DNA of 7,904 bases from a virus (IMGVR_UViG_2660238352_000010:1-7904), one strand, 5' to 3'; positions 1-7,500 are shown, counted from the first letter of the stretch. Notes: generated by a model not told the origin, from the letters alone. Program-made: numbers and translations.

Positions 1-89
1 TAGCTGGATTGAATACCCTTCAAAAGAGGTCCGCGACGCTGCTAATCAAAAGATGATGTCGGACCCACGGATGAAAGAGCTACTGGCCG

Positions 90-455
90 GTGTCGCAGTG
101 GGCGTCAGGCGCGGCAGCAAACAGTATGCTGGCATCATTCTTCCTTCAGACGGATGCATCAAATCTGAATCTTATGCACCACAAGGGCACGTCGAATGCA
201 CAACTTGGTACATTTGGTGCGTTTGACCATAACTGGCATACGGTTGTTTTCCGCTTTGCGGGAAATAACAGCGAAAGAGTCGTTCCGGTGATTGATGGTA
301 CAGAGCAGACGGCGTTTGACCTTGTGATGTGGACAAATGATGGCTTTACAGCAGATACGCTGACGCTGACAGATATCACGGGGGCAAAAGCGACGTATCC
401 TGTACTGCTTGATACGGTCACAGTCAAAGTTAACGAAAGCCGGGCATCATCATAA
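90..455 (+). CDS. Hypothetical protein, probably the 3' portion of a larger or frameshifted gene; function not recognised
   Basis: Frame 3 is open from 75 to the TAA at 453-455 and reads as a protein-like, beta-rich sequence (…FDHNWHTVVFRFAGNNSERVVPVIDGTEQTAFDLVMW…). The start is uncertain: GTG at 90 or ATG at 126, neither with a good SD. Frame 2 is open from the window edge to 238 and is also protein-like, so a frameshifted or left-truncated gene is possible. Confidence 0.35.
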   Translation: MSQWASGAAANSMLASFFLQTDASNLNLMHHKGTSNAQLGTFGAFDHNWHTVVFRFAGNNSERVVPVIDGTEQTAFDLVMWTNDGFTADTLTLTDITGAKATYPVLLDTVTVKVNESRASS

Positions 456-594: not shown

Positions 595-789
595 ATGACA
601 TTTATTCATCAGGTGATGCTGTACTTCTGTACGGCGGTCTGTGTGCTGTATCTTCTTTCGGGTGGGTACAGGGCAGTGCGCGATTTCTGGCGCAGGCAGA
701 TTGATAAAAGGGCCGCAGAGAAAATCAGCGCCAGTCAGTCAGCCGGAGCAAAAACAGAAGCCCCACTCATTCCGGAACAACCTTCTTAA
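595..789 (+). CDS. Hypothetical small membrane protein (64 aa)
   Basis: ATG at 595 to TAA at 787-789. The N-terminus is hydrophobic (VMLYFCTAVCVLYLLSGGY), consistent with one TM helix, followed by a basic, charged tail. The SD is weak (aagaaa). No homolog recognised. Confidence 0.3.
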   Translation: MTFIHQVMLYFCTAVCVLYLLSGGYRAVRDFWRRQIDKRAAEKISASQSAGAKTEAPLIPEQPS

Positions 790-814: not shown

Positions 815-1105
815 ATGTCAGAAATAAAATCGCTGGTCACTGCTGAGGCAGTGAAGGAAGTCCTGCGCTCTGAAGAAGTCCGGAGCGCACTGAAACAGCA
901 ACTTCGGCAGAACCTTGAGGCGCGTCTTGATGCAGAAGTGGATTCAATTCTGGATGAATTGCTTGGTGCACAGCCGGAACCATCCCCGGAACTGCTTCCG
1001 GAACCACAGGCGGAAGATGTCACCACGGAAAATGGTGATATTCAGCCGGAGCCACCGGTGACGGATATGACAGACACACAGCCAGAATCGGGCACAATGC
1101 TGTAA
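815..1105 (+). CDS. Hypothetical acidic protein (96 aa) with a helical N-terminus and a Pro/Glu-rich, probably disordered C-terminus
   Basis: ATG at 815 is the first ATG after the in-frame TAA TAA at 787-792; the ORF-track start at 641 is an overlap artefact. The sequence is MSEIKSLVTAEAVKEVLRSEEVRSALKQQLRQNLEARLDAEVDSILDELLG…PEPSPELLPEPQAED… It ends at TAA 1103-1105, directly followed by a terminator hairpin. No homolog recognised. Confidence 0.45.
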   Translation: MSEIKSLVTAEAVKEVLRSEEVRSALKQQLRQNLEARLDAEVDSILDELLGAQPEPSPELLPEPQAEDVTTENGDIQPEPPVTDMTDTQPESGTML

Positions 1106-1400: not shown

Positions 1401-1745
1401 ATGAAGAAAAAATACGAACTGGTTGTTAAAGGGATAAATAATTACCCGAATAAGATTACTGTTACTGTGGCACTGGAAATTGGTGGGTATCCGTCACTGT
1501 TGTTGCCAGATGTGGCGATTAGTCTTGACCGTACTGAAGATGCCACGCTGGAGTTTTACGAAGCTGAGGCGAAAAAGCAGGCGAAGCAGTTTTTCATGGA
1601 TGTTGCTGCCGGGTTATGTGAAGGGGATGGTCCGTTGCCGGAAAAGCGCCCCGTAATTTTAGAGGCGCAGGATGTGTTGATAACCTACAGAGGAAAACTA
1701 CCGGGAATAATTACTGGTTCTCTGAAGACTCCACCGCTGGCCTGA
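1401..1745 (+). CDS. YdfR-like DUF1327 family protein (114 aa), the usual gene between holin and endolysin in Qin-type lysis cassettes
   Basis: ATG at 1401 with SD GGGGAGAG (1386-1393), translationally coupled to the holin stop at 1394-1396. The N-terminus MKKKYELVVKGINNYP resembles the YdfR family as I recall it. Its position between S and R matches the essQ-ydfR-rrrQ arrangement. Confidence 0.7.
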   Translation: MKKKYELVVKGINNYPNKITVTVALEIGGYPSLLLPDVAISLDRTEDATLEFYEAEAKKQAKQFFMDVAAGLCEGDGPLPEKRPVILEAQDVLITYRGKLPGIITGSLKTPPLA

Positions 1746-1795
1746 AGACTTAACATATCCAGGGATTTGAAATCGATAAACCCTGATAAATATCC

Positions 1796-2833
1796 ATGAA
1801 CACCAAAATCAAATACGGCCTGTCGGCTGCCGTTCTGGCGCTGATTGCCGCAGGTGCGCCTGCGCCTGAAATCCTCGACCAGTTTCTGGATGAAAAGGAA
1901 GGTAACCACACCACGGCATACCGTGATGGCGCGGGTATCTGGACCATCTGCCGCGGTGCCATCCTGGTGGATAGTAAACCTGTCGTTCCGGGCATGAAGT
2001 TGTCGAAGGAAAAATGCGACCAGGTTAACGCCATTGAGCGTGATAAAGCGCTGGCGTGGGTGGAGAAAAACATCAGAGTGCCGCTGACCGAACCCCAGAA
2101 AGCGGGGATCGCGTCATTCTGTCCGTACAACATTGGTCCCGGTAAGTGTTTCCCGTCGACGTTTTACAGACGAATTAATGCTGGTGATCGCAGGGGAGCA
2201 TGCGAGGCGATTCGCTGGTGGATTAAGGACGGTGAGCGGTATTTTTTCTGTAATGAGCTGAATGAAAAAGGGGAGCCGGTCACCTGGCAGGGGCGGCAAT
2301 ATCAGGCGTACCCGATTGAGGGGAGTGGCTTTGAGATGAACGGAAAGGGCAGCAGTGCCCGCCCGTCGCTGACGGTGTCCAATCTTTTCGGCCTTGTCAC
2401 CGGAATGGCGGAGGATTTGCAGAGCCTGGTGGGGGCCACGGTGGTCCGCCGCCGGGTGTATGCCCGTTTTCTGGATGCGGTGAATTTCGTTGCGGGCAAT
2501 CCGGAAGCGGACCCGGAGCAGGAGCTGAGTGACCGCTGGGTGGTGGAGCAGATGTCGCAGCTGACAGCCATGACGGCCTCGTTTGTGCTGGCCACACCGA
2601 CCGAGACGGACGGGGCGCTGTTTCCCGGTCGTATCATGCTGGCGAACACCTGTATGTGGACCTACCGCTCTGATGAGTGTGGTTACACGGGCGGGGCTGT
2701 GGCGGATGAGTTCGATAAACCCACCACGGATATCCGTAAGGACAGATGCAGCAAGTGCATGCGCGGGTGTGAACTGCGCAGGAATGTCGGCAATTTTGGC
2801 GGTTTCCTTTCCATTAATAAACTTTCGCAGTAA
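1796..2833 (+). CDS. Chimeric ORF: SAR endolysin (T4-lysozyme-like, GH24) residues 1-146 fused in frame to the C-terminal 199 residues of minor tail protein L
   Basis: Residues 1-146 (MNTKIKYGLSAAVLALIAAGAPAPEILDQFLDEKEGNHTTAYRDGAGIWT…GACEAIRWWIKDG) match RrrQ/R21-type endolysins, with a Gly/Ala-rich SAR domain and an E35-x8-D44-x5-T50 catalytic triad. Residues 147-345 (ERYFFCNELNEKGEPVTWQGRQYQAYPIEGSGFEMNGKG…CSKCMRGCELRRNVGNFGGFLSINKLSQ) match lambda gpL from about residue 34 to its C-terminus, including the C-terminal Cys cluster. The junction is at about 2231-2236. Confidence 0.85.
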   Translation: MNTKIKYGLSAAVLALIAAGAPAPEILDQFLDEKEGNHTTAYRDGAGIWTICRGAILVDSKPVVPGMKLSKEKCDQVNAIERDKALAWVEKNIRVPLTEPQKAGIASFCPYNIGPGKCFPSTFYRRINAGDRRGACEAIRWWIKDGERYFFCNELNEKGEPVTWQGRQYQAYPIEGSGFEMNGKGSSARPSLTVSNLFGLVTGMAEDLQSLVGATVVRRRVYARFLDAVNFVAGNPEADPEQELSDRWVVEQMSQLTAMTASFVLATPTETDGALFPGRIMLANTCMWTYRSDECGYTGGAVADEFDKPTTDIRKDRCSKCMRGCELRRNVGNFGGFLSINKLSQ

Positions 2834-2838
2834 ATCCC

Positions 2839-3582
2839 ATGACAGAGACAGAATCAGCGATTCTGGCGCATGCCCGGCGGTGTGCGCCTGCGGAGTCGTG
2901 CGGCTTCGTGATAAGCACGCCGGAGGGGGAGCGGTATATCCCTTGTGTGAATATTTCCGCAGAGCCGGAGGCGTATTTTCGTATCGCACCGGAAGACTGG
3001 CTGCGGGCAGAGATGCAGGGGGAGATTGTGGCACTGGTCCACAGTCATCCCGGTGGACTGCCCTGGCTGAGCGAGGCCGACCGGCGGCTGCAGATAAAAA
3101 GCGCACTGCCCTGGTGGCTGGTCAGCCGGGGTGACATTCACAAATTCCGCTGCGTTCCGCACCTGACGGGACGGCGCTTTGCGCACGGGGTGACGGACTG
3201 TTACACGCTGTTCCGGGATGCATACCATCTGGCAGGCATTGATATGCCGGATTTTCATCGCGGGGATGACTGGTGGTGCAACGGTCAGAACCTTTACCTG
3301 GACAATATGGAGGCAACGGGCTTTTACCGGGTGCCCCTGTCCTCTGCACTGCCGGGCGATATCCTGCTGTGCTGCTTCGGCGCATCGGTGGCTAATCATG
3401 CCGCCATTTACTGCGGCAACGGTGAGCTGCTTCACCATCTGCCTGAACAGCTGAGTAAACGGGAGAGGTATTCCGAAAAATGGCAACGACGAACGCATTC
3501 TGTCTGGCGTCACCGCCACTGGCACGCATCTGCCTTCACGGGGATTTACAACGATTTGGCCGCCGCCTCAGCCTGTATGTGA
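2839..3582 (+). CDS. K: Tail tip assembly protein K (MPN/JAMM plus NlpC/P60 domains), 247 aa
   Basis: The product is close to lambda gpK (MTETESAILAHARRCAPAESCGFV…). It has a complete JAMM motif H68-x-H70-x7-S78-x2-D81 (VHSHPGGLPWLSEAD) and an NlpC/P60-type Cys121 (VTDCYTLF) with downstream His residues. The start is 5 nt after the L stop. It overlaps I by 103 bp. Confidence 0.9.
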   Translation: MTETESAILAHARRCAPAESCGFVISTPEGERYIPCVNISAEPEAYFRIAPEDWLRAEMQGEIVALVHSHPGGLPWLSEADRRLQIKSALPWWLVSRGDIHKFRCVPHLTGRRFAHGVTDCYTLFRDAYHLAGIDMPDFHRGDDWWCNGQNLYLDNMEATGFYRVPLSSALPGDILLCCFGASVANHAAIYCGNGELLHHLPEQLSKRERYSEKWQRRTHSVWRHRHWHASAFTGIYNDLAAASACM

Positions 3583-4160
3583 ACACGGCAGCGGAAGCCA
3601 TCCGCGCACTGTCGATGCAGGTGCCGGGCTTTCGCCGTCAGATGAACGAAGGCTGGTACCAGATACGCATTGCCGGTGAGGATACGGCACCGGAGGCGGT
3701 GTATGCCCGCCTTCACGAACCACTGAGTGAGGGAACGGTTATCCATATTGTGCCGCGACTGGCCGGGGCCGGAAAGGGTGGACTGCAGATTGTGCTGGGG
3801 GCGGCAGCCATCGTGGGCTCTTTCCTCACGGCCGGTGCCTCGATGGCGTTATGGGGTACAGCCCTGAGTGCCGGCGGTTTTTCTGCCACCACGATGCTGT
3901 TTTCACTGGGGGCCAGCATGATTCTGGGTGGTGTGGCCCAGATGCTGGCCCCGAAGGCAAAAACACCGGATTACCGCGCAACGGATAACGGCAGACAGAA
4001 CACGTATTTTTCGTCACTGGACAACATGATTGCCCAGGGTAACCCGATGCCGGTGCCTTACGGGGAAATGCTGGTTGGCTCCCGCCGTATATCCCAGGAC
4101 ATCAGTACCCGTGATGAAGGCGGGTGCGGAAAGGTCGTGGTTATCGGGCGGCAGGGGTAA
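3480..4160 (+). CDS. I: Tail tip assembly protein I (ubiquitin-like N-terminal domain, hydrophobic Gly/Ala-rich C-terminal half)
   Basis: The product MATTNAFCLASPPLARICLHGDLQRFGRRL…MLAPKAKTPDYRATDNGRQNTYFSSLDNMIAQGN…VVVIGR aligns along its length with lambda gpI as I recall it. A GG sits at residues 100-101 after the Ubl region. The stop is TAA at 4158-4160. Confidence 0.9.
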   Translation: MATTNAFCLASPPLARICLHGDLQRFGRRLSLYVNTAAEAIRALSMQVPGFRRQMNEGWYQIRIAGEDTAPEAVYARLHEPLSEGTVIHIVPRLAGAGKGGLQIVLGAAAIVGSFLTAGASMALWGTALSAGGFSATTMLFSLGASMILGGVAQMLAPKAKTPDYRATDNGRQNTYFSSLDNMIAQGNPMPVPYGEMLVGSRRISQDISTRDEGGCGKVVVIGRQG

Positions 4161-4167
4161 AAAGAAT

Positions 4168-4201
4168 AAAAAAAATCCCGCAGTGATCGCGGAGCTGCGG
4201 G
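4168..4201 (-). terminator. Rho-independent terminator, minus-strand orientation
   Basis: A 7 bp stem (cccgcag 4177-4183 pairing with ctgcggg 4195-4201) with an 11 nt loop. On the + strand it is preceded by A8 (4168-4175), so the minus-strand RNA ends …CUGCGGGAUUUUUUUU. There is no U-tract on the + side. Confidence 0.6.
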
Positions 4202-4262
4202 GACAGACAAAGATTAGAGTTAAGGAGTTGTTTTTGTTACTCGGGCAAAAAAACACTAACGC
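4168..4262 (-). ncRNA. Candidate prophage-encoded small RNA (~95 nt), minus strand, between tail genes I and J
   Basis: The unit is bounded by a near-consensus sigma70 promoter (TTCACA, 16 bp spacer, TATAAT) with a predicted TSS near 4262, and by the intrinsic terminator at 4168-4201. No plausible ORF is contained. The predicted RNA is 5'-GCUGCGUUAGUGUUUUUUUGCCCGAGUAACAAAAACAACUCCUUAACUCUAAUCUUUGUCUGUCCCCGCAGCUCCGCGAUCACUGCGGGAUUUUUUUU-3', with a CA-rich tract and an anti-SD-like CUCCUU. Confidence 0.45.
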
Positions 4263-4268
4263 AGCGAA

Positions 4269-4296
4269 ATTATACGCGCCACAGTCAGTTTGTGAA
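4269..4296 (-). promoter_or_regulatory. Sigma70 promoter on the minus strand (-35 TTCACA, 16 bp spacer, -10 TATAAT), with an A/T-rich upstream region
   Basis: On the + strand, ATTATA at 4269-4274 is the reverse complement of a perfect TATAAT, and TGTGAA at 4291-4296 is the reverse complement of TTCACA (5/6 to TTGACA). The minus-strand sequence upstream of the -35 (…ggcataaaaattctgaatatc) is A/T-rich and UP-element-like. Confidence 0.55.
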
Positions 4297-4368
4297 AATG
4301 TGAAGATATTCAGAATTTTTATGCCATTACCGGTTTTTACCAACAGGATTATCGGTGGACATGAAAGA

Positions 4369-4404
4369 AAACCCCGGTATCTGCTGATACCGGGGTTTCT
4401 CTTT
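4369..4404. terminator. Bidirectional intrinsic terminator: perfect 13 bp stem, 4 nt loop, U-rich tracts on both strands
   Basis: aaaccccggtatc (4369-4381), loop tgct, gataccggggttt (4386-4398). The + strand is followed by TTCTCTTT; the minus strand is followed by UCUUUCAU after the stem. It lies about 100 nt upstream of the J start and about 70 nt upstream (minus sense) of the minus-strand promoter. Confidence 0.6.
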
Positions 4405-4501
4405 AGCATGGCAGAAATGTGTTTCATGCTTTTCGGGCGAAGGATATCCGACTTCTGTACGGAATGGCAAGTGGCGGTTAATTTATTCAGGGGAAGGCTG
4501 T

Positions 4502-7500
4502 ATGGGAAAAGGTGGCGGTAAGGCACACACGCCTCGTGAGGCGAAGGATAATCTCAAATCCACGCAGATGATGAGCGTGATTGATGCGGTTGGTGAGGGA
4601 CCGATAGAAGGCCCGGTGAAGGGACTGCAGAGTATCCTGGTGAACAAAACCCCGCTGACGGACACGGACGGTAATCCCGTGATACACGGTGTGACGGCGG
4701 TCTGGCGCGCCGGGGAGCAGGAGCAGACACCACCGGAAGGCTTTGAGTCCTCCGGAGCTGAAACTGTACTGGGCGTGGAAGTGACGAAGGCAAAACCGGT
4801 GACGCGCACCATTACGTCCGCGAACATTGACCGCCTGCGGGTTACCTTCGGGGTGCAGTCACTGGTGCAGACCACGTCAAAGGGTGACCGAAACCCGACA
4901 TCCGTCCGCCTGCTGATTCAGTTACAGCGTAACGGTAACTGGGTGACAGAAAAGGATGTCACCATTAACGGCAAGACCACCTCGCAGTTTCTGGCGTCGG
5001 TGATTCTGGATAATCTGCCTCCCCGTCCTTTTAACATCCGGATGGTCCGGGAGACGGCGGACAGCACCACGGACCAGTTGCAGAACAGAACACTCTGGTC
5101 ATCGTACACCGAAATCATCGATGTGAAACAGTGCTACCCGAACACGGCGATTGTGGGGCTGCAGGTGGATGCGGAGCAGTTCGGTGGTCAGCAGATGACG
5201 GTGAACTACCATATCCGCGGTCGCATCATCCAGGTGCCGTCAAACTATGACCCGGAAAAACGCACCTACAGCGGTATCTGGGACGGCAGTCTGAAACCGG
5301 CATACAGCAACAACCCGGCCTGGTGCCTGTGGGACATGCTGACTCACCCGCGCTACGGGATGGGAAAACGTCTGGGGGCGGCGGATGTGGACAAGTGGGC
5401 GCTGTATGCCATCGGGCAGTACTGCGACCAGACGGTCCCGGATGGTTTCGGGGGCACAGAGCCGCGGATGACCTTTAATGCGTACCTGGCACAACAGCGT
5501 AAGGCGTGGGACGTTCTCAGTGATTTCTGCTCGGCGATGCGCTGTATGCCGGTATGGAACGGCCAGACGCTGACGTTCGTTCAGGACCGCCAGTCGGATG
5601 TGGTGTGGCCGTACACGAACAGCGATGTGGTGGTGGATGATAACGGCGTGGGGTTCCGCTACAGCTTCAGTGCCCTGAAGGACCGGCACACGGCGGTGGA
5701 GGTGAATTACACCGACCCGCAGAACGGCTGGCAGACCTCCACGGAACTGGTGGAAGACCCGGAAGCCATACTGCGCTACGGACGCAACCTGCTGAAGATG
5801 GATGCGTTCGGCTGCACCAGTCGCGGTCAGGCCCACCGTGCCGGGCTGTGGGTGATAAAGACAGAACTGCTGGAAACGCAGACGGTGGATTTCACACTCG
5901 GGTCACAGGGGCTGCGGCACACACCCGGTGACATCATTGAAATCTGTGATAACGACTATGCCGGAACCCTGACCGGCGGACGTGTCCTGTCCATTGATGC
6001 TGCCACCCGCACCCTGACGCTGGACCGTGAAGTGACACTTCCGGGGACAGGTACATCGACGGTGAACCTGATTAACGGCAGCGGTAAGCCGGTGAGTGTG
6101 GACATCACCGCACACCCCGCGCCGGACCGGATACAGGTCAGTACCCTGCCTGATGGTGTGGAGACATACGGGGTGTGGGGACTCTCCCTGCCGTCACTGC
6201 GCCGTCGCCTGTTCCGCTGTGTCTCCATCCGGGAAAACACGGACGGCACCTTTGCCATCACGGCAGTGCAGCACGTACCGGAAAAAGAAGCCATTGTGGA
6301 TAACGGAGCCCGCTTTGAGCCGCAGTCAGGCACCCTGAACAGCGTTATCCCACCGGCAGTGCAGCACCTGACGGTGGAGGTGAGCGCAGCTGACGGCCAG
6401 TATCTGGCGCTGGCGAAATGGGACACGCCGCGGGTGGTGAAGGGCGTGCGCTTCAGTCTGCGCCTGACCAGTGGAAGCGGTGAGAACAGCCGCCTGCTGA
6501 CCACCGCCATCACTGCCGATACGGAGCACCGTTTCAGTGGCCTGCCTCTCGGGGAATACACCCTGACGGTCAGGGCGATTAACAGCTATGGCCAGCAGGG
6601 CGAACCCGCCACCACCACGTTCCGGATTAACGCACCGGCAGCGCCTGCCGGTGTTGAACTGACGCCGGGGTATTTTCAGATAACGGCGGTACCGCGTCTT
6701 GCGGTGTATGACCCGACGGTGCAGTTTGAGTTCTGGTTTTCGGAGGCAAAAATTGCAGACGCCGCACAGGTGGAAACCTCTGCCCGTTATCTGGGGACCG
6801 GCAGTCAGTGGAGTGTCTCCGGCCCGCACATTAAGCCCGGAAAGGATTTCTGGTTTTATGTGCGCAGCGTCAACCTGGTGGGTAAATCTGCTTTTGTGGA
6901 AGCCAGTGGACGGGCGAGCAATGATGCTGCGGGCTATCTGGAACTTTTCCGGGAAAAGATAGGAAAAACGCATCTGGCAGAGGCGCTGTGGGCAGAGATT
7001 GACAACAGTCAGCTGAAGGACGAGATGGCGGAAATGCAGACCACCATCACAGAAACCCGCAATGAAATCACACAGACGGTCAGTAAAACGCTGGAGGACC
7101 AGAGCGCCACCATACAGCAGATACAGCGCGTGCAGAAGGACACAAATGATGACCTTGCTGCACTTTACATGCTGAAGGTACAGAAAACAAAAAATGGCAT
7201 ACCCTATGTTGCCGGTATTGGAGCGGGGATTGAGGATACTGATGGCCAGCCCCTGAGCAACATACTGCTGCTGGCTGACCGTATTGCGATGATTAATCCG
7301 GAGGACGGCAACACCACGCCGTTATTTGTGGCGCAGGGGAATCAGTTGTTCATGAACGATGTGTTCCTGAAGCGGCTGTTTGCGGTGAGTATCACCTCGT
7401 CCGGCAATCCCCCGACGTTTTCCCTGACGCCGGAGGGCAGGCTGACCGCAAGAAATGCTGATATCAGCGGTAACGTGAATGCGAATTCCGGGACGCTCAA

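Follow-up and report, generated by a model that had tools for sequence, protein, structure and literature searches.

An in-frame chimera of endolysin R and tail-tip protein L marks a probable large internal deletion in a lambdoid prophage

Results

Gene content of the contig

The stretch of DNA analysed here, hereafter called the window, comprises 7,904 bp and represents the entire contig CDRO01002327.1 of the assembly GCA_001373195.1, with both ends falling inside phage genes and neither an attachment site nor flanking chromosome in view. All of its genes are oriented on the plus strand and correspond to the late region of a lambdoid prophage (Table 1). The truncated gene at the left end occupies the position at which relatives carry a gene annotated as a SASA family carbohydrate esterase or DUF6645 protein. 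Further downstream, holin, YdfR and lysozyme follow one another in the same order as in the Qin-type lysis cassette, which has been annotated in many E. coli genomes. The lysozyme is part of a chimeric ORF, and the genes adjoining this ORF keep the lengths found in relatives; K, for instance, is equal in length to the annotated C40 family peptidase of those relatives, and J, which is complete at 1176 aa in a sister contig (L004), remains open to the right contig end. Retention of the holin and of the tail-tip genes K, I and J, as proposed in a first-pass annotation made from the sequence alone, was borne out by Pfam matches in each case.

Table 1. Coordinates of genes and other features in the 7,904-bp window
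Feature	Coordinates	Strand	Remarks
NanS-p-like carbohydrate esterase gene, 3′ end	1..455	+	DUF6645 C-terminal domain, Pfam E=1.3e-26; cut by left contig end
DUF1378 small protein gene	595..789	+	Pfam PF07125, E=8.9e-35, full length
DUF826 protein gene	815..1105	+	Pfam PF05696, E=5.7e-28
Class II holin, phage 21 S (pinholin) family, 71 aa	1181..1396	+	Phage_holin_2_1, E=9e-33, full length
YdfR (DUF1327) gene, between holin and endolysin	1401..1745	+	Pfam E=2.4e-45; YdfR family in relatives
R::L fusion ORF	1796..2833	+	ATG start, 345 codons
R-derived part of fusion ORF	1796..2229	+	Codons 1 to ~145; 94.5% nucleotide identity to R of locus L008
Crossover microhomology CGGTG	2230..2234	+	R codons 145-147 and L codons 32-34
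L-derived part of fusion ORF	2235..2833	+	Codons 34-232 and native stop; 97.5% nucleotide identity to L of locus L008
Tail-tip assembly protein K, 247 aa, intact	2839..3582	+	Prok-JAB (JAB/MPN) and NLPC_P60 (Pfam)
Tail assembly protein I, 193 aa, intact	3579..4160	+	Lambda_tail_I (Pfam); 582 nt, as in relatives
AT-richer 341-nt insert between I and J, candidate small transcription unit	4161..4501	-	Not part of the deletion scar
Terminator-like hairpin in I-J gap	4193..4177	-	
Promoter-like TTCACA-16-TATAAT in I-J gap	4296..4269	-	11/12, near-consensus
Terminator-like hairpin in I-J gap	4399..4368	-	
Tail-tip attachment protein J, first 1134 codons	4502..7904	+	Seven Pfam matches, six J-specific; no stop

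The gap between I and J is occupied by an insert with a GC content of 43-47%, compared with ~60% in the surrounding sequence; lambda, by contrast, lacks the insert and has 60 nt between the two genes. On its minus strand the gap contains a promoter-like site and two terminator-like hairpins, one of them positioned about 75-95 nt downstream of the promoter-like site, and the second being a 14-bp hairpin. In six relatives, the promoter and the terminator are invariant, and the stretch between them is represented by two alleles. No match at the Rfam gathering threshold was obtained for the whole window, and a search of the I-J gap with an E-value threshold returned only sub-threshold matches at chance level. 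The insert may be a small-RNA moron.

Structure of the chimeric ORF and its junction

The first-pass annotation described a single 345-codon ORF which starts as a SAR endolysin and switches at codon 146/147 to tail protein L at about residue 34. Indeed, such an ORF is present, and in protein terms it consists of residues 1-146 of the SAR endolysin R followed by residues 34-232 of the tail-tip protein L. When checked separately for family membership, as had been suggested, each half matches its own Pfam family: Phage_lysozyme over fusion residues 33-147 (E=3.7e-21) and Phage_tail_L over residues 146-343 (E=1.4e-91). With two strong and separate domain matches, the ORF is far beyond chance.

We mapped the junction by a three-way nucleotide comparison of the window with intact R and intact L, for which a single prophage of E. 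coli SW070917 (locus L008), where R is annotated as rrrQ, provided both references. The register of R is kept from the ATG through position 2234, and the register of L from position 2230 through the stop codon, so that the two overlap in the pentamer CGGTG; over the slightly longer AGGnCGGTG, R and L have eight of nine bases in common at the crossover. For a junction placed at random, the approximate chance of finding at least 5 bp of microhomology is 0.006, and that the reading frame was kept across it is a 1-in-3 accident. The comparison places the switch where it had been predicted, and defines the end points that an alignment against intact relatives was expected to yield. The start of K lies 5 nt past the fusion stop, in agreement with the earlier description, and the spacer TAA-ATCCC-ATG is the same in lambda. 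As far as the observation itself is concerned, the first-pass annotation is confirmed in every detail that could be checked.

The endolysin half

The canonical lysozyme triad of SAR endolysins has the form E-X8-D-X5-T (PMC9239132), and the triad of the fusion fits this motif: E35, D44 and T50 are all present and align with E35, D44 and T50 of the phage 21 SAR endolysin (3HDE), as the earlier reading had it. Residues 8-24, GLSAAVLALIAAGAPAP, have the sequence properties of a SAR segment, being preceded by K4 and K6, with a mean Kyte-Doolittle hydropathy of 1.64 and a Gly/Ala/Ser content of 59%. The fusion has in common with SAR endolysins of the phage 21/933W type the weakly hydrophobic, Gly/Ala-rich N-terminal segment after two lysines, the E-X8-D-X5-T triad and an upstream holin of the S21 family.

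It differs from them in that 199 residues of L take the place of the 31 C-terminal residues, and in that no spanin gene comes next: K follows directly, whereas relatives have Rz, annotated as “lysis protein”, after R. The missing C-terminus, GRDCRIRSNNCYGQVSRRDQESALACWGIDR, represents the last 31 of the 177 residues of R, and the Phage_lysozyme alignment covers profile positions 2-112 of 125, the last 13 positions being gone. Intact R (177 aa) can be aligned with R21 (165 aa) up to R21 residue 163, while the lysozyme part of the fusion reaches no further than the equivalent of R21 residue ~142, so that the last ~23 residues of the R21 fold are gone. The catalytic domain (PF00959) is thus incomplete, and of the “catalytically complete muralytic domain” claimed in the first-pass annotation the triad stands, whereas the domain as a whole does not.

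The tail-tip protein L half

Lambda gpL has an HDI beta-sandwich at its N-terminus (residues 1-166) and an iron-binding domain at its C-terminus (residues 154-232), in which C173, C182, C205 and C212 act as [4Fe-4S] ligands (PMC10721106). With the lambda tail tip (PDB 8IYK) as the structural reference, the beta-sandwich of the fusion is incomplete, as residues 1-33 of L are deleted, and the match to PF05100 begins at profile position 5. Mapping by sequence, the equivalents of the cluster ligands, C286, C295, C318 and C325, are kept together with C321, and would coordinate a putative Fe-S cluster. The M-L-K-I-J context of L is preserved on one side: K, I and J are found downstream as in lambda, and M and all tail genes upstream of it are gone.

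Extent and content of the probable deletion

The similarity of the window to E. coli prophages is about 91-98%, reaching about 95-98% in the best records. In SW070917, which has the closest intact prophage with both flanks, the left and right flanks are 96.6% and 96.9% identical to the window, respectively, and both lie in one prophage. Relative to this prophage, exactly 17,002 bp between the crossover points are missing, and in three other relatives, EC2, S1-KEN-03-A and SCU-104, the flanks are spaced by 16.8-17.8 kb. These figures agree with the deletion of 15-20 kb that had been estimated without recourse to databases.

On the lysis side, the SW070917 interval contains the end of R, several small ORFs, Rz (“lysis protein”), a TonB-family gene in the Bor position and YlcI/YnfO. 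It continues with an HNH endonuclease, small and large terminase subunits, a 645-aa capsid protein and a portal, followed by a head-tail connector, a head closure protein and an HK97-gp10-like protein, and ends with tail completion, the major tail subunit, the G/T chaperones, the tape measure, M and the first 33 codons of L. The interval thus accounts for the spanins, terminase, portal, head genes and tail genes V through M, the removal of which had been postulated. The heads lost relative to these relatives are HK97-like, with an HNH-terminase module, rather than lambda-like, which leaves the argument for a deletion unaffected. Colinear flanks with a missing internal block, together with the loss of genes for virion production, are what is seen in a defective prophage, and the view that the in-frame R::L chimera marks a large internal prophage deletion is supported. 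Perfect short microhomology at the end points is the usual signature of RecA-independent illegitimate recombination, through slippage or microhomology-mediated repair.

Occurrence of the junction

The identical 345-aa protein is encoded on three contigs with different ends, which belong to the assemblies GCA_000944435.1, GCA_001373195.1 and GCA_000936715.1. They are 100% identical over positions 1317-2844 of the window, a stretch that takes in the last part of the holin gene, ydfR and the fusion in its entirety, and differ in clustered blocks within K and J; these differences represent either exchange with paralogous prophages or paralogues that were collapsed differently. Support for the junction comes from these three assemblies, all of them strongly fragmented, with contig numbers above 2,300, and perhaps derived from related isolates. 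We take the junction to be real and identical by descent in all three.

None of 5,426 complete E. coli genomes contains the junction, and an exact-match scan for it returned nothing in metagenome contigs or in GTDB representative genomes. The fused form occurring natively in phages, which the first-pass annotation had named as a finding that would speak against a deletion, was looked for among 50,697 phage records: in none of the 2,437 matching records are the two halves found in one place, and a native “tail-associated lysin” architecture was rejected on these grounds. The SRCC 1675 record, in which the junction query is covered to 100%, was rejected because there, at the record's end, L′ comes first and R second, the reverse of the window. 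P0016-P0018, P0020, P0022, P0085 and P0090, which scored above plain L or lysozyme proteins and were initially considered as R::L fusions, did not qualify either, each being an L or lysozyme protein that carries tandem duplications within it; P0024 fuses L to I.

Comparable deletions in other prophages

Internal loss of morphogenesis genes is the usual fate of prophages. The same holin-YdfR-lysozyme cassette architecture is displayed by the cryptic prophages Qin (essQ-ydfR-rrrQ) and DLP12 (essD-rrrD-rzpD) of K-12 and by the defective prophage pool of O157 strains, which, like the window, have lost morphogenesis genes by internal deletion, with lysis and tail-fibre-proximal genes left in place. 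Unlike the window, DLP12 retains its spanin (rzpD/rzoD). The window further differs from the K-12 prophages in having its end points inside R and L, in frame, and the junction is absent from K-12. The fate of such prophages is reviewed in PMC6379469.

Two other E. coli prophages, in strains CEA601S and JNEC-KY204, belong to the same family (92-95% identity) and have independently lost the heads and the tail shaft as well, with S-ydfR-R followed within 0.5-3 kb by L/K-I-J. Their scars are different: in CEA601S, a partial Rz is joined to the last ~49 codons of L (Rz′::′L), whereas in JNEC-KY204 an IS1 lies between gene fragments, and R, Rz and L are all of full length.

In a large protein database, about 20 of the best 120 protein clusters matched by the fusion consist of L with a foreign domain, derived from Nu1, the gpA ATPase or nuclease, the portal, capsid E, G or T, and further from M, a LacI-family protein, K or a tail-fibre C-terminus. 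The fusion had been regarded as an unusual protein; it is less so than that assessment suggested, as in-frame chimeras of L with fragments of other prophage genes are frequent in databases. Five such chimeras were traced to contigs, three of which (L010, L012 and L016) represent lambda-like prophages where K-I-J comes after an internal deletion; L014 has a moron between L and a partial K, and L015 has tail-fibre genes directly after L. The chimeras of L with Nu1, gpA, portal, capsid E, G, T and M represent the same kind of event as the window, namely an in-frame internal deletion ending in L, with 2-6 bp of microhomology in the five that were mapped. Their left partner is, however, a morphogenesis gene, as opposed to an endolysin, and most of them begin at L codons 2-4 and contain a nearly full-length L, whereas the junction in the window is at codon 33/34.

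The right ends of the five mapped junctions all fall within lambda positions 13433-13441, at an 8-bp palindrome, GGATATCC, in L codons 2-5. Their left ends vary (lambda 1020, 2268, 3390, 6325 and 6595), with deletions of 6.8-12.4 kb, and the perfect microhomology of 2-6 bp is accompanied by further similarity to GGATATCCGG. At the protein level, the L part begins with Q2, D3 or I4 in eight of 11 chimeras; a score-based ranking favours an L of nearly full length, but does not account for a single codon pair. The start of L looks like a deletion hotspot, with many independent deletions in lambda-like prophages having this palindrome as their right end. The L lineage present in the window lacks the palindrome, and the hotspot did not make the window junction.

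Discussion

Origin of the chimera

We consider it highly probable that a single microhomology deletion of ~17 kb, within a defective lambdoid prophage of the E. coli/Shigella type, left behind the in-frame chimera. One illegitimate recombination event in the prophage state, by replication slippage or by break repair, would have involved CGGTG in R codons 145-147 and the same pentamer in L codons 32-34. The ~17 kb lost would have included the 3′ end of R, Rz/Rz1, cos, the HNH-terminase genes, capsid, portal and connector, as well as the tail tube, chaperones, tape measure, M and the 5′ end of L; since cos and terminase would be among the lost sequences, the event probably occurred, or was fixed, in the prophage state. 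The end points would have been in the same frame by chance, yielding a 345-codon ORF with the translation start of R and the stop codon of L. Intactness of the neighbouring S, ydfR, K, I and J genes and identity of the 1.5-kb core in three assemblies suggest that the deletion is evolutionarily recent; the identity of the three copies says nothing on selection.

R and L could instead have come from two different lambdoid prophages in the same chromosome, by a larger deletion or rearrangement or through a prophage hybrid. Related lambdoid prophages are abundant, with a median of 4 matching places per E. coli genome and a maximum of 27, and in 99RCEF and S1-CAM-02-A the best matches to the left and right flanks are located in different prophages. 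The blocks of difference in K and J, if due to exchange with paralogous prophages and not to collapsed paralogues, would fit such an origin, as would the L′-R adjacency of opposite order in SRCC 1675; moreover, both ends of the contig are in phage genes, and lambdoid mosaicism softens arguments for a one-prophage origin that are based on the closest relative. Gene order and strand are nevertheless those of a simple internal deletion, close relatives of both flanks are found with comparable identity in one prophage in four complete genomes, and a deletion between separate prophages of the same orientation would take out the intervening chromosome, which is usually costly. An origin from two prophages is therefore unlikely. 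That the junction is a chimera of assembly or library preparation, absent from cells, is a concern prompted by the fragmentation of the three assemblies, by the window being an entire short contig that ends in repeated prophage genes, and by the absence of the junction from all 5,426 complete E. coli genomes. A repeat-induced mis-join by the assembler is ruled out, since R and L have just 5 bp in common, far below any assembler k-mer. The same junction and 1.5-kb core recur in three separate deposits with different contig ends and flank variants, and analogous microhomology junctions occur in long NCBI contigs, making an artefact most improbable.

It is hardly credible that the fusion is a selected, functional two-domain protein, be it a domesticated lysis or vesiculation factor or a muralytic protein of the tail tip. 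To be sure, the catalytic triad, the SAR segment and all Fe-S cysteines are kept, S, ydfR, K, I and J are intact nearby, the allele is common to three assemblies, and lysis modules of defective prophages can affect the host, as is reported for the DLP12 lysis module and vesicle production (PMC7918800). Yet both domains are cut within their folds, and the architecture appears in no phage record and no complete genome that was searched. SAR-driven export would put the L part into the wrong compartment, and no tail is possible without V, H, M, U and Z. The three identical copies carry no selection signal, and an in-frame outcome has a chance of 1/3.

Likely fate of the product

The retained R start would allow the chimera to be translated upon late, Q-dependent transcription. 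A SAR endolysin is exported by the Sec system as an inactive tethered protein and is released once the pinholin collapses the membrane potential, after which disruption of the outer membrane requires a spanin (PMC9239132). In the chimera, the SAR segment would carry the 199-residue L fragment via Sec into the periplasm, away from cytoplasmic Fe-S assembly and from its tail partners, which this element has lost in any case. The AlphaFold2 model of the fusion, built from a 22-sequence alignment, was discarded (mean pLDDT 40, pTM 0.29), and the structural argument is made from alignments to the solved R21 and gpL structures. Because both domains are cut within their folds (the C-terminal 17% of the lysozyme and the first strands of L), and because there is no spanin, the chimera would most likely fold poorly and be a by-product whose lytic activity is reduced or absent. 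The element alone is expected to be unable to package DNA, to build virions or to complete spanin-dependent lysis, and other prophages in the same cell might supply the missing functions in trans.

We regard it as very unlikely that the S - YdfR - R′::′L - K - I - J remnant has been kept as a useful “suicide/leak” module devoid of spanin and virion. If it were, the chimera would still be exported once the late promoter is activated and would keep sufficient muralytic activity, in concert with the pinholin, to kill or permeabilise the cell or raise vesicle release, by means of an enzyme that brings a foreign Fe-S domain into the periplasm.

Significance

Overall, the R::L junction is a real but ordinary deletion scar of a defective prophage, a case of prophage decay and no new kind of protein, in-frame chimeras of this kind being routine; it is simply the first such chimera seen with an endolysin as the left partner. 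It provides a clean, nucleotide-resolved case in which a deletion at 5 bp of microhomology removes the whole morphogenesis block and spares the lysis and tail-tip genes. It also carries a warning for annotation, in that a 345-aa “lysozyme/minor tail protein L” ORF is to be flagged as a deletion scar and not as a bifunctional protein, and the junction could serve as a clonal marker of the lineage that carries it. With regard to prophage dismantling in general, the hotspot at GGATATCC may tell more than the junction of the window itself.

Deletions sharing an end point at the start of L

The junctions of five chimeras in which a foreign left partner is joined in frame to the tail-tip gene L were placed on the coordinates of phage lambda (NC_001416). 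In these lambda-like prophages from natural E. coli isolates, the right end of all five independent in-frame deletions falls at lambda 13433-13441, that is, at the 8-bp palindrome GGATATCC across L codons 2-5, while the left ends are all different, lying within A, B or E, 6.8-12.4 kb upstream. Each junction displays 2-6 bp of microhomology, and at the protein level the L part begins at residues 2-4 in 8 of 11 such chimeras. The palindrome looks like a deletion hotspot.

Coordinates of features in the window and in related loci
Feature	Location	Strand	Remarks
Chimeras of a foreign left partner with L	L010:9001-9876; L012:5313-6557; L014:763-2001; L015:2251-3399; L016:1452-2447		in-frame deletions
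Variable blocks	window 2845-3450 and blocks in 5371-7235		compared with L004 and L006
Extra ydfR-R segment	L008:2147-2568; L002:7070-7342		compared with window 1746-1795
Partial L and lysozyme gene	L003:3910-4903 (NZ_CP015023.1 5505582-5506575)		E. coli SRCC 1675
I-J insert	window 4161-4501	minus (signals)	AT-richer
Sigma-70-like promoter	4296 to 4269	minus	predicted by sequence match; near-consensus, 11/12
Terminator-like hairpin and T-run	4193 to 4177	minus	predicted
Second hairpin, 14 bp	4368-4399	minus	predicted; in I-J insert

Variation and rearrangement in related prophages

The fusion itself is identical in the window and in the other two contigs carrying it, L004 and L006, whereas substitutions between the three are tightly clustered within K and J, and L006 has a 5-nt indel immediately past the fusion's stop codon. 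The substitution clusters look as if paralogous prophages had donated patches by gene conversion, or as if the short-read assemblies had collapsed paralogues differently. Several L and lysozyme proteins deposited in databases (P0016, P0017, P0018, P0020, P0022, P0085 and P0090) contain internal tandem duplications of 40-75 residues, which probably arose when repeated prophage genes were misassembled. Such duplications raise bit scores and imitate fusions in similarity searches. In SRCC 1675, a partial L gene retaining its N-terminal part, but not the C-terminus, is followed 55 nt downstream by a complete lysozyme gene, in the order opposite to that of the window's fusion. This pair is located at the extreme end of the linearised chromosome record, and may reflect either a further rearrangement of prophage DNA or a fault in closing the assembly.

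Between ydfR and R, many relatives have an additional segment of 370-560 nt, which the window lacks; in JNEC-KY204 this segment is annotated as a hypothetical gene on the minus strand. The length difference is a minor mosaic difference within the lysis cassette.

The insert between I and J

While I and J are separated by only 60 nt in lambda, the window contains a 341-nt insert at this position, which matched no Rfam family. Its predicted promoter and terminator are invariant in relatives, and the predicted transcribed body occurs as two alleles. The insert is a candidate for a small RNA of the prophage, or for a moron.
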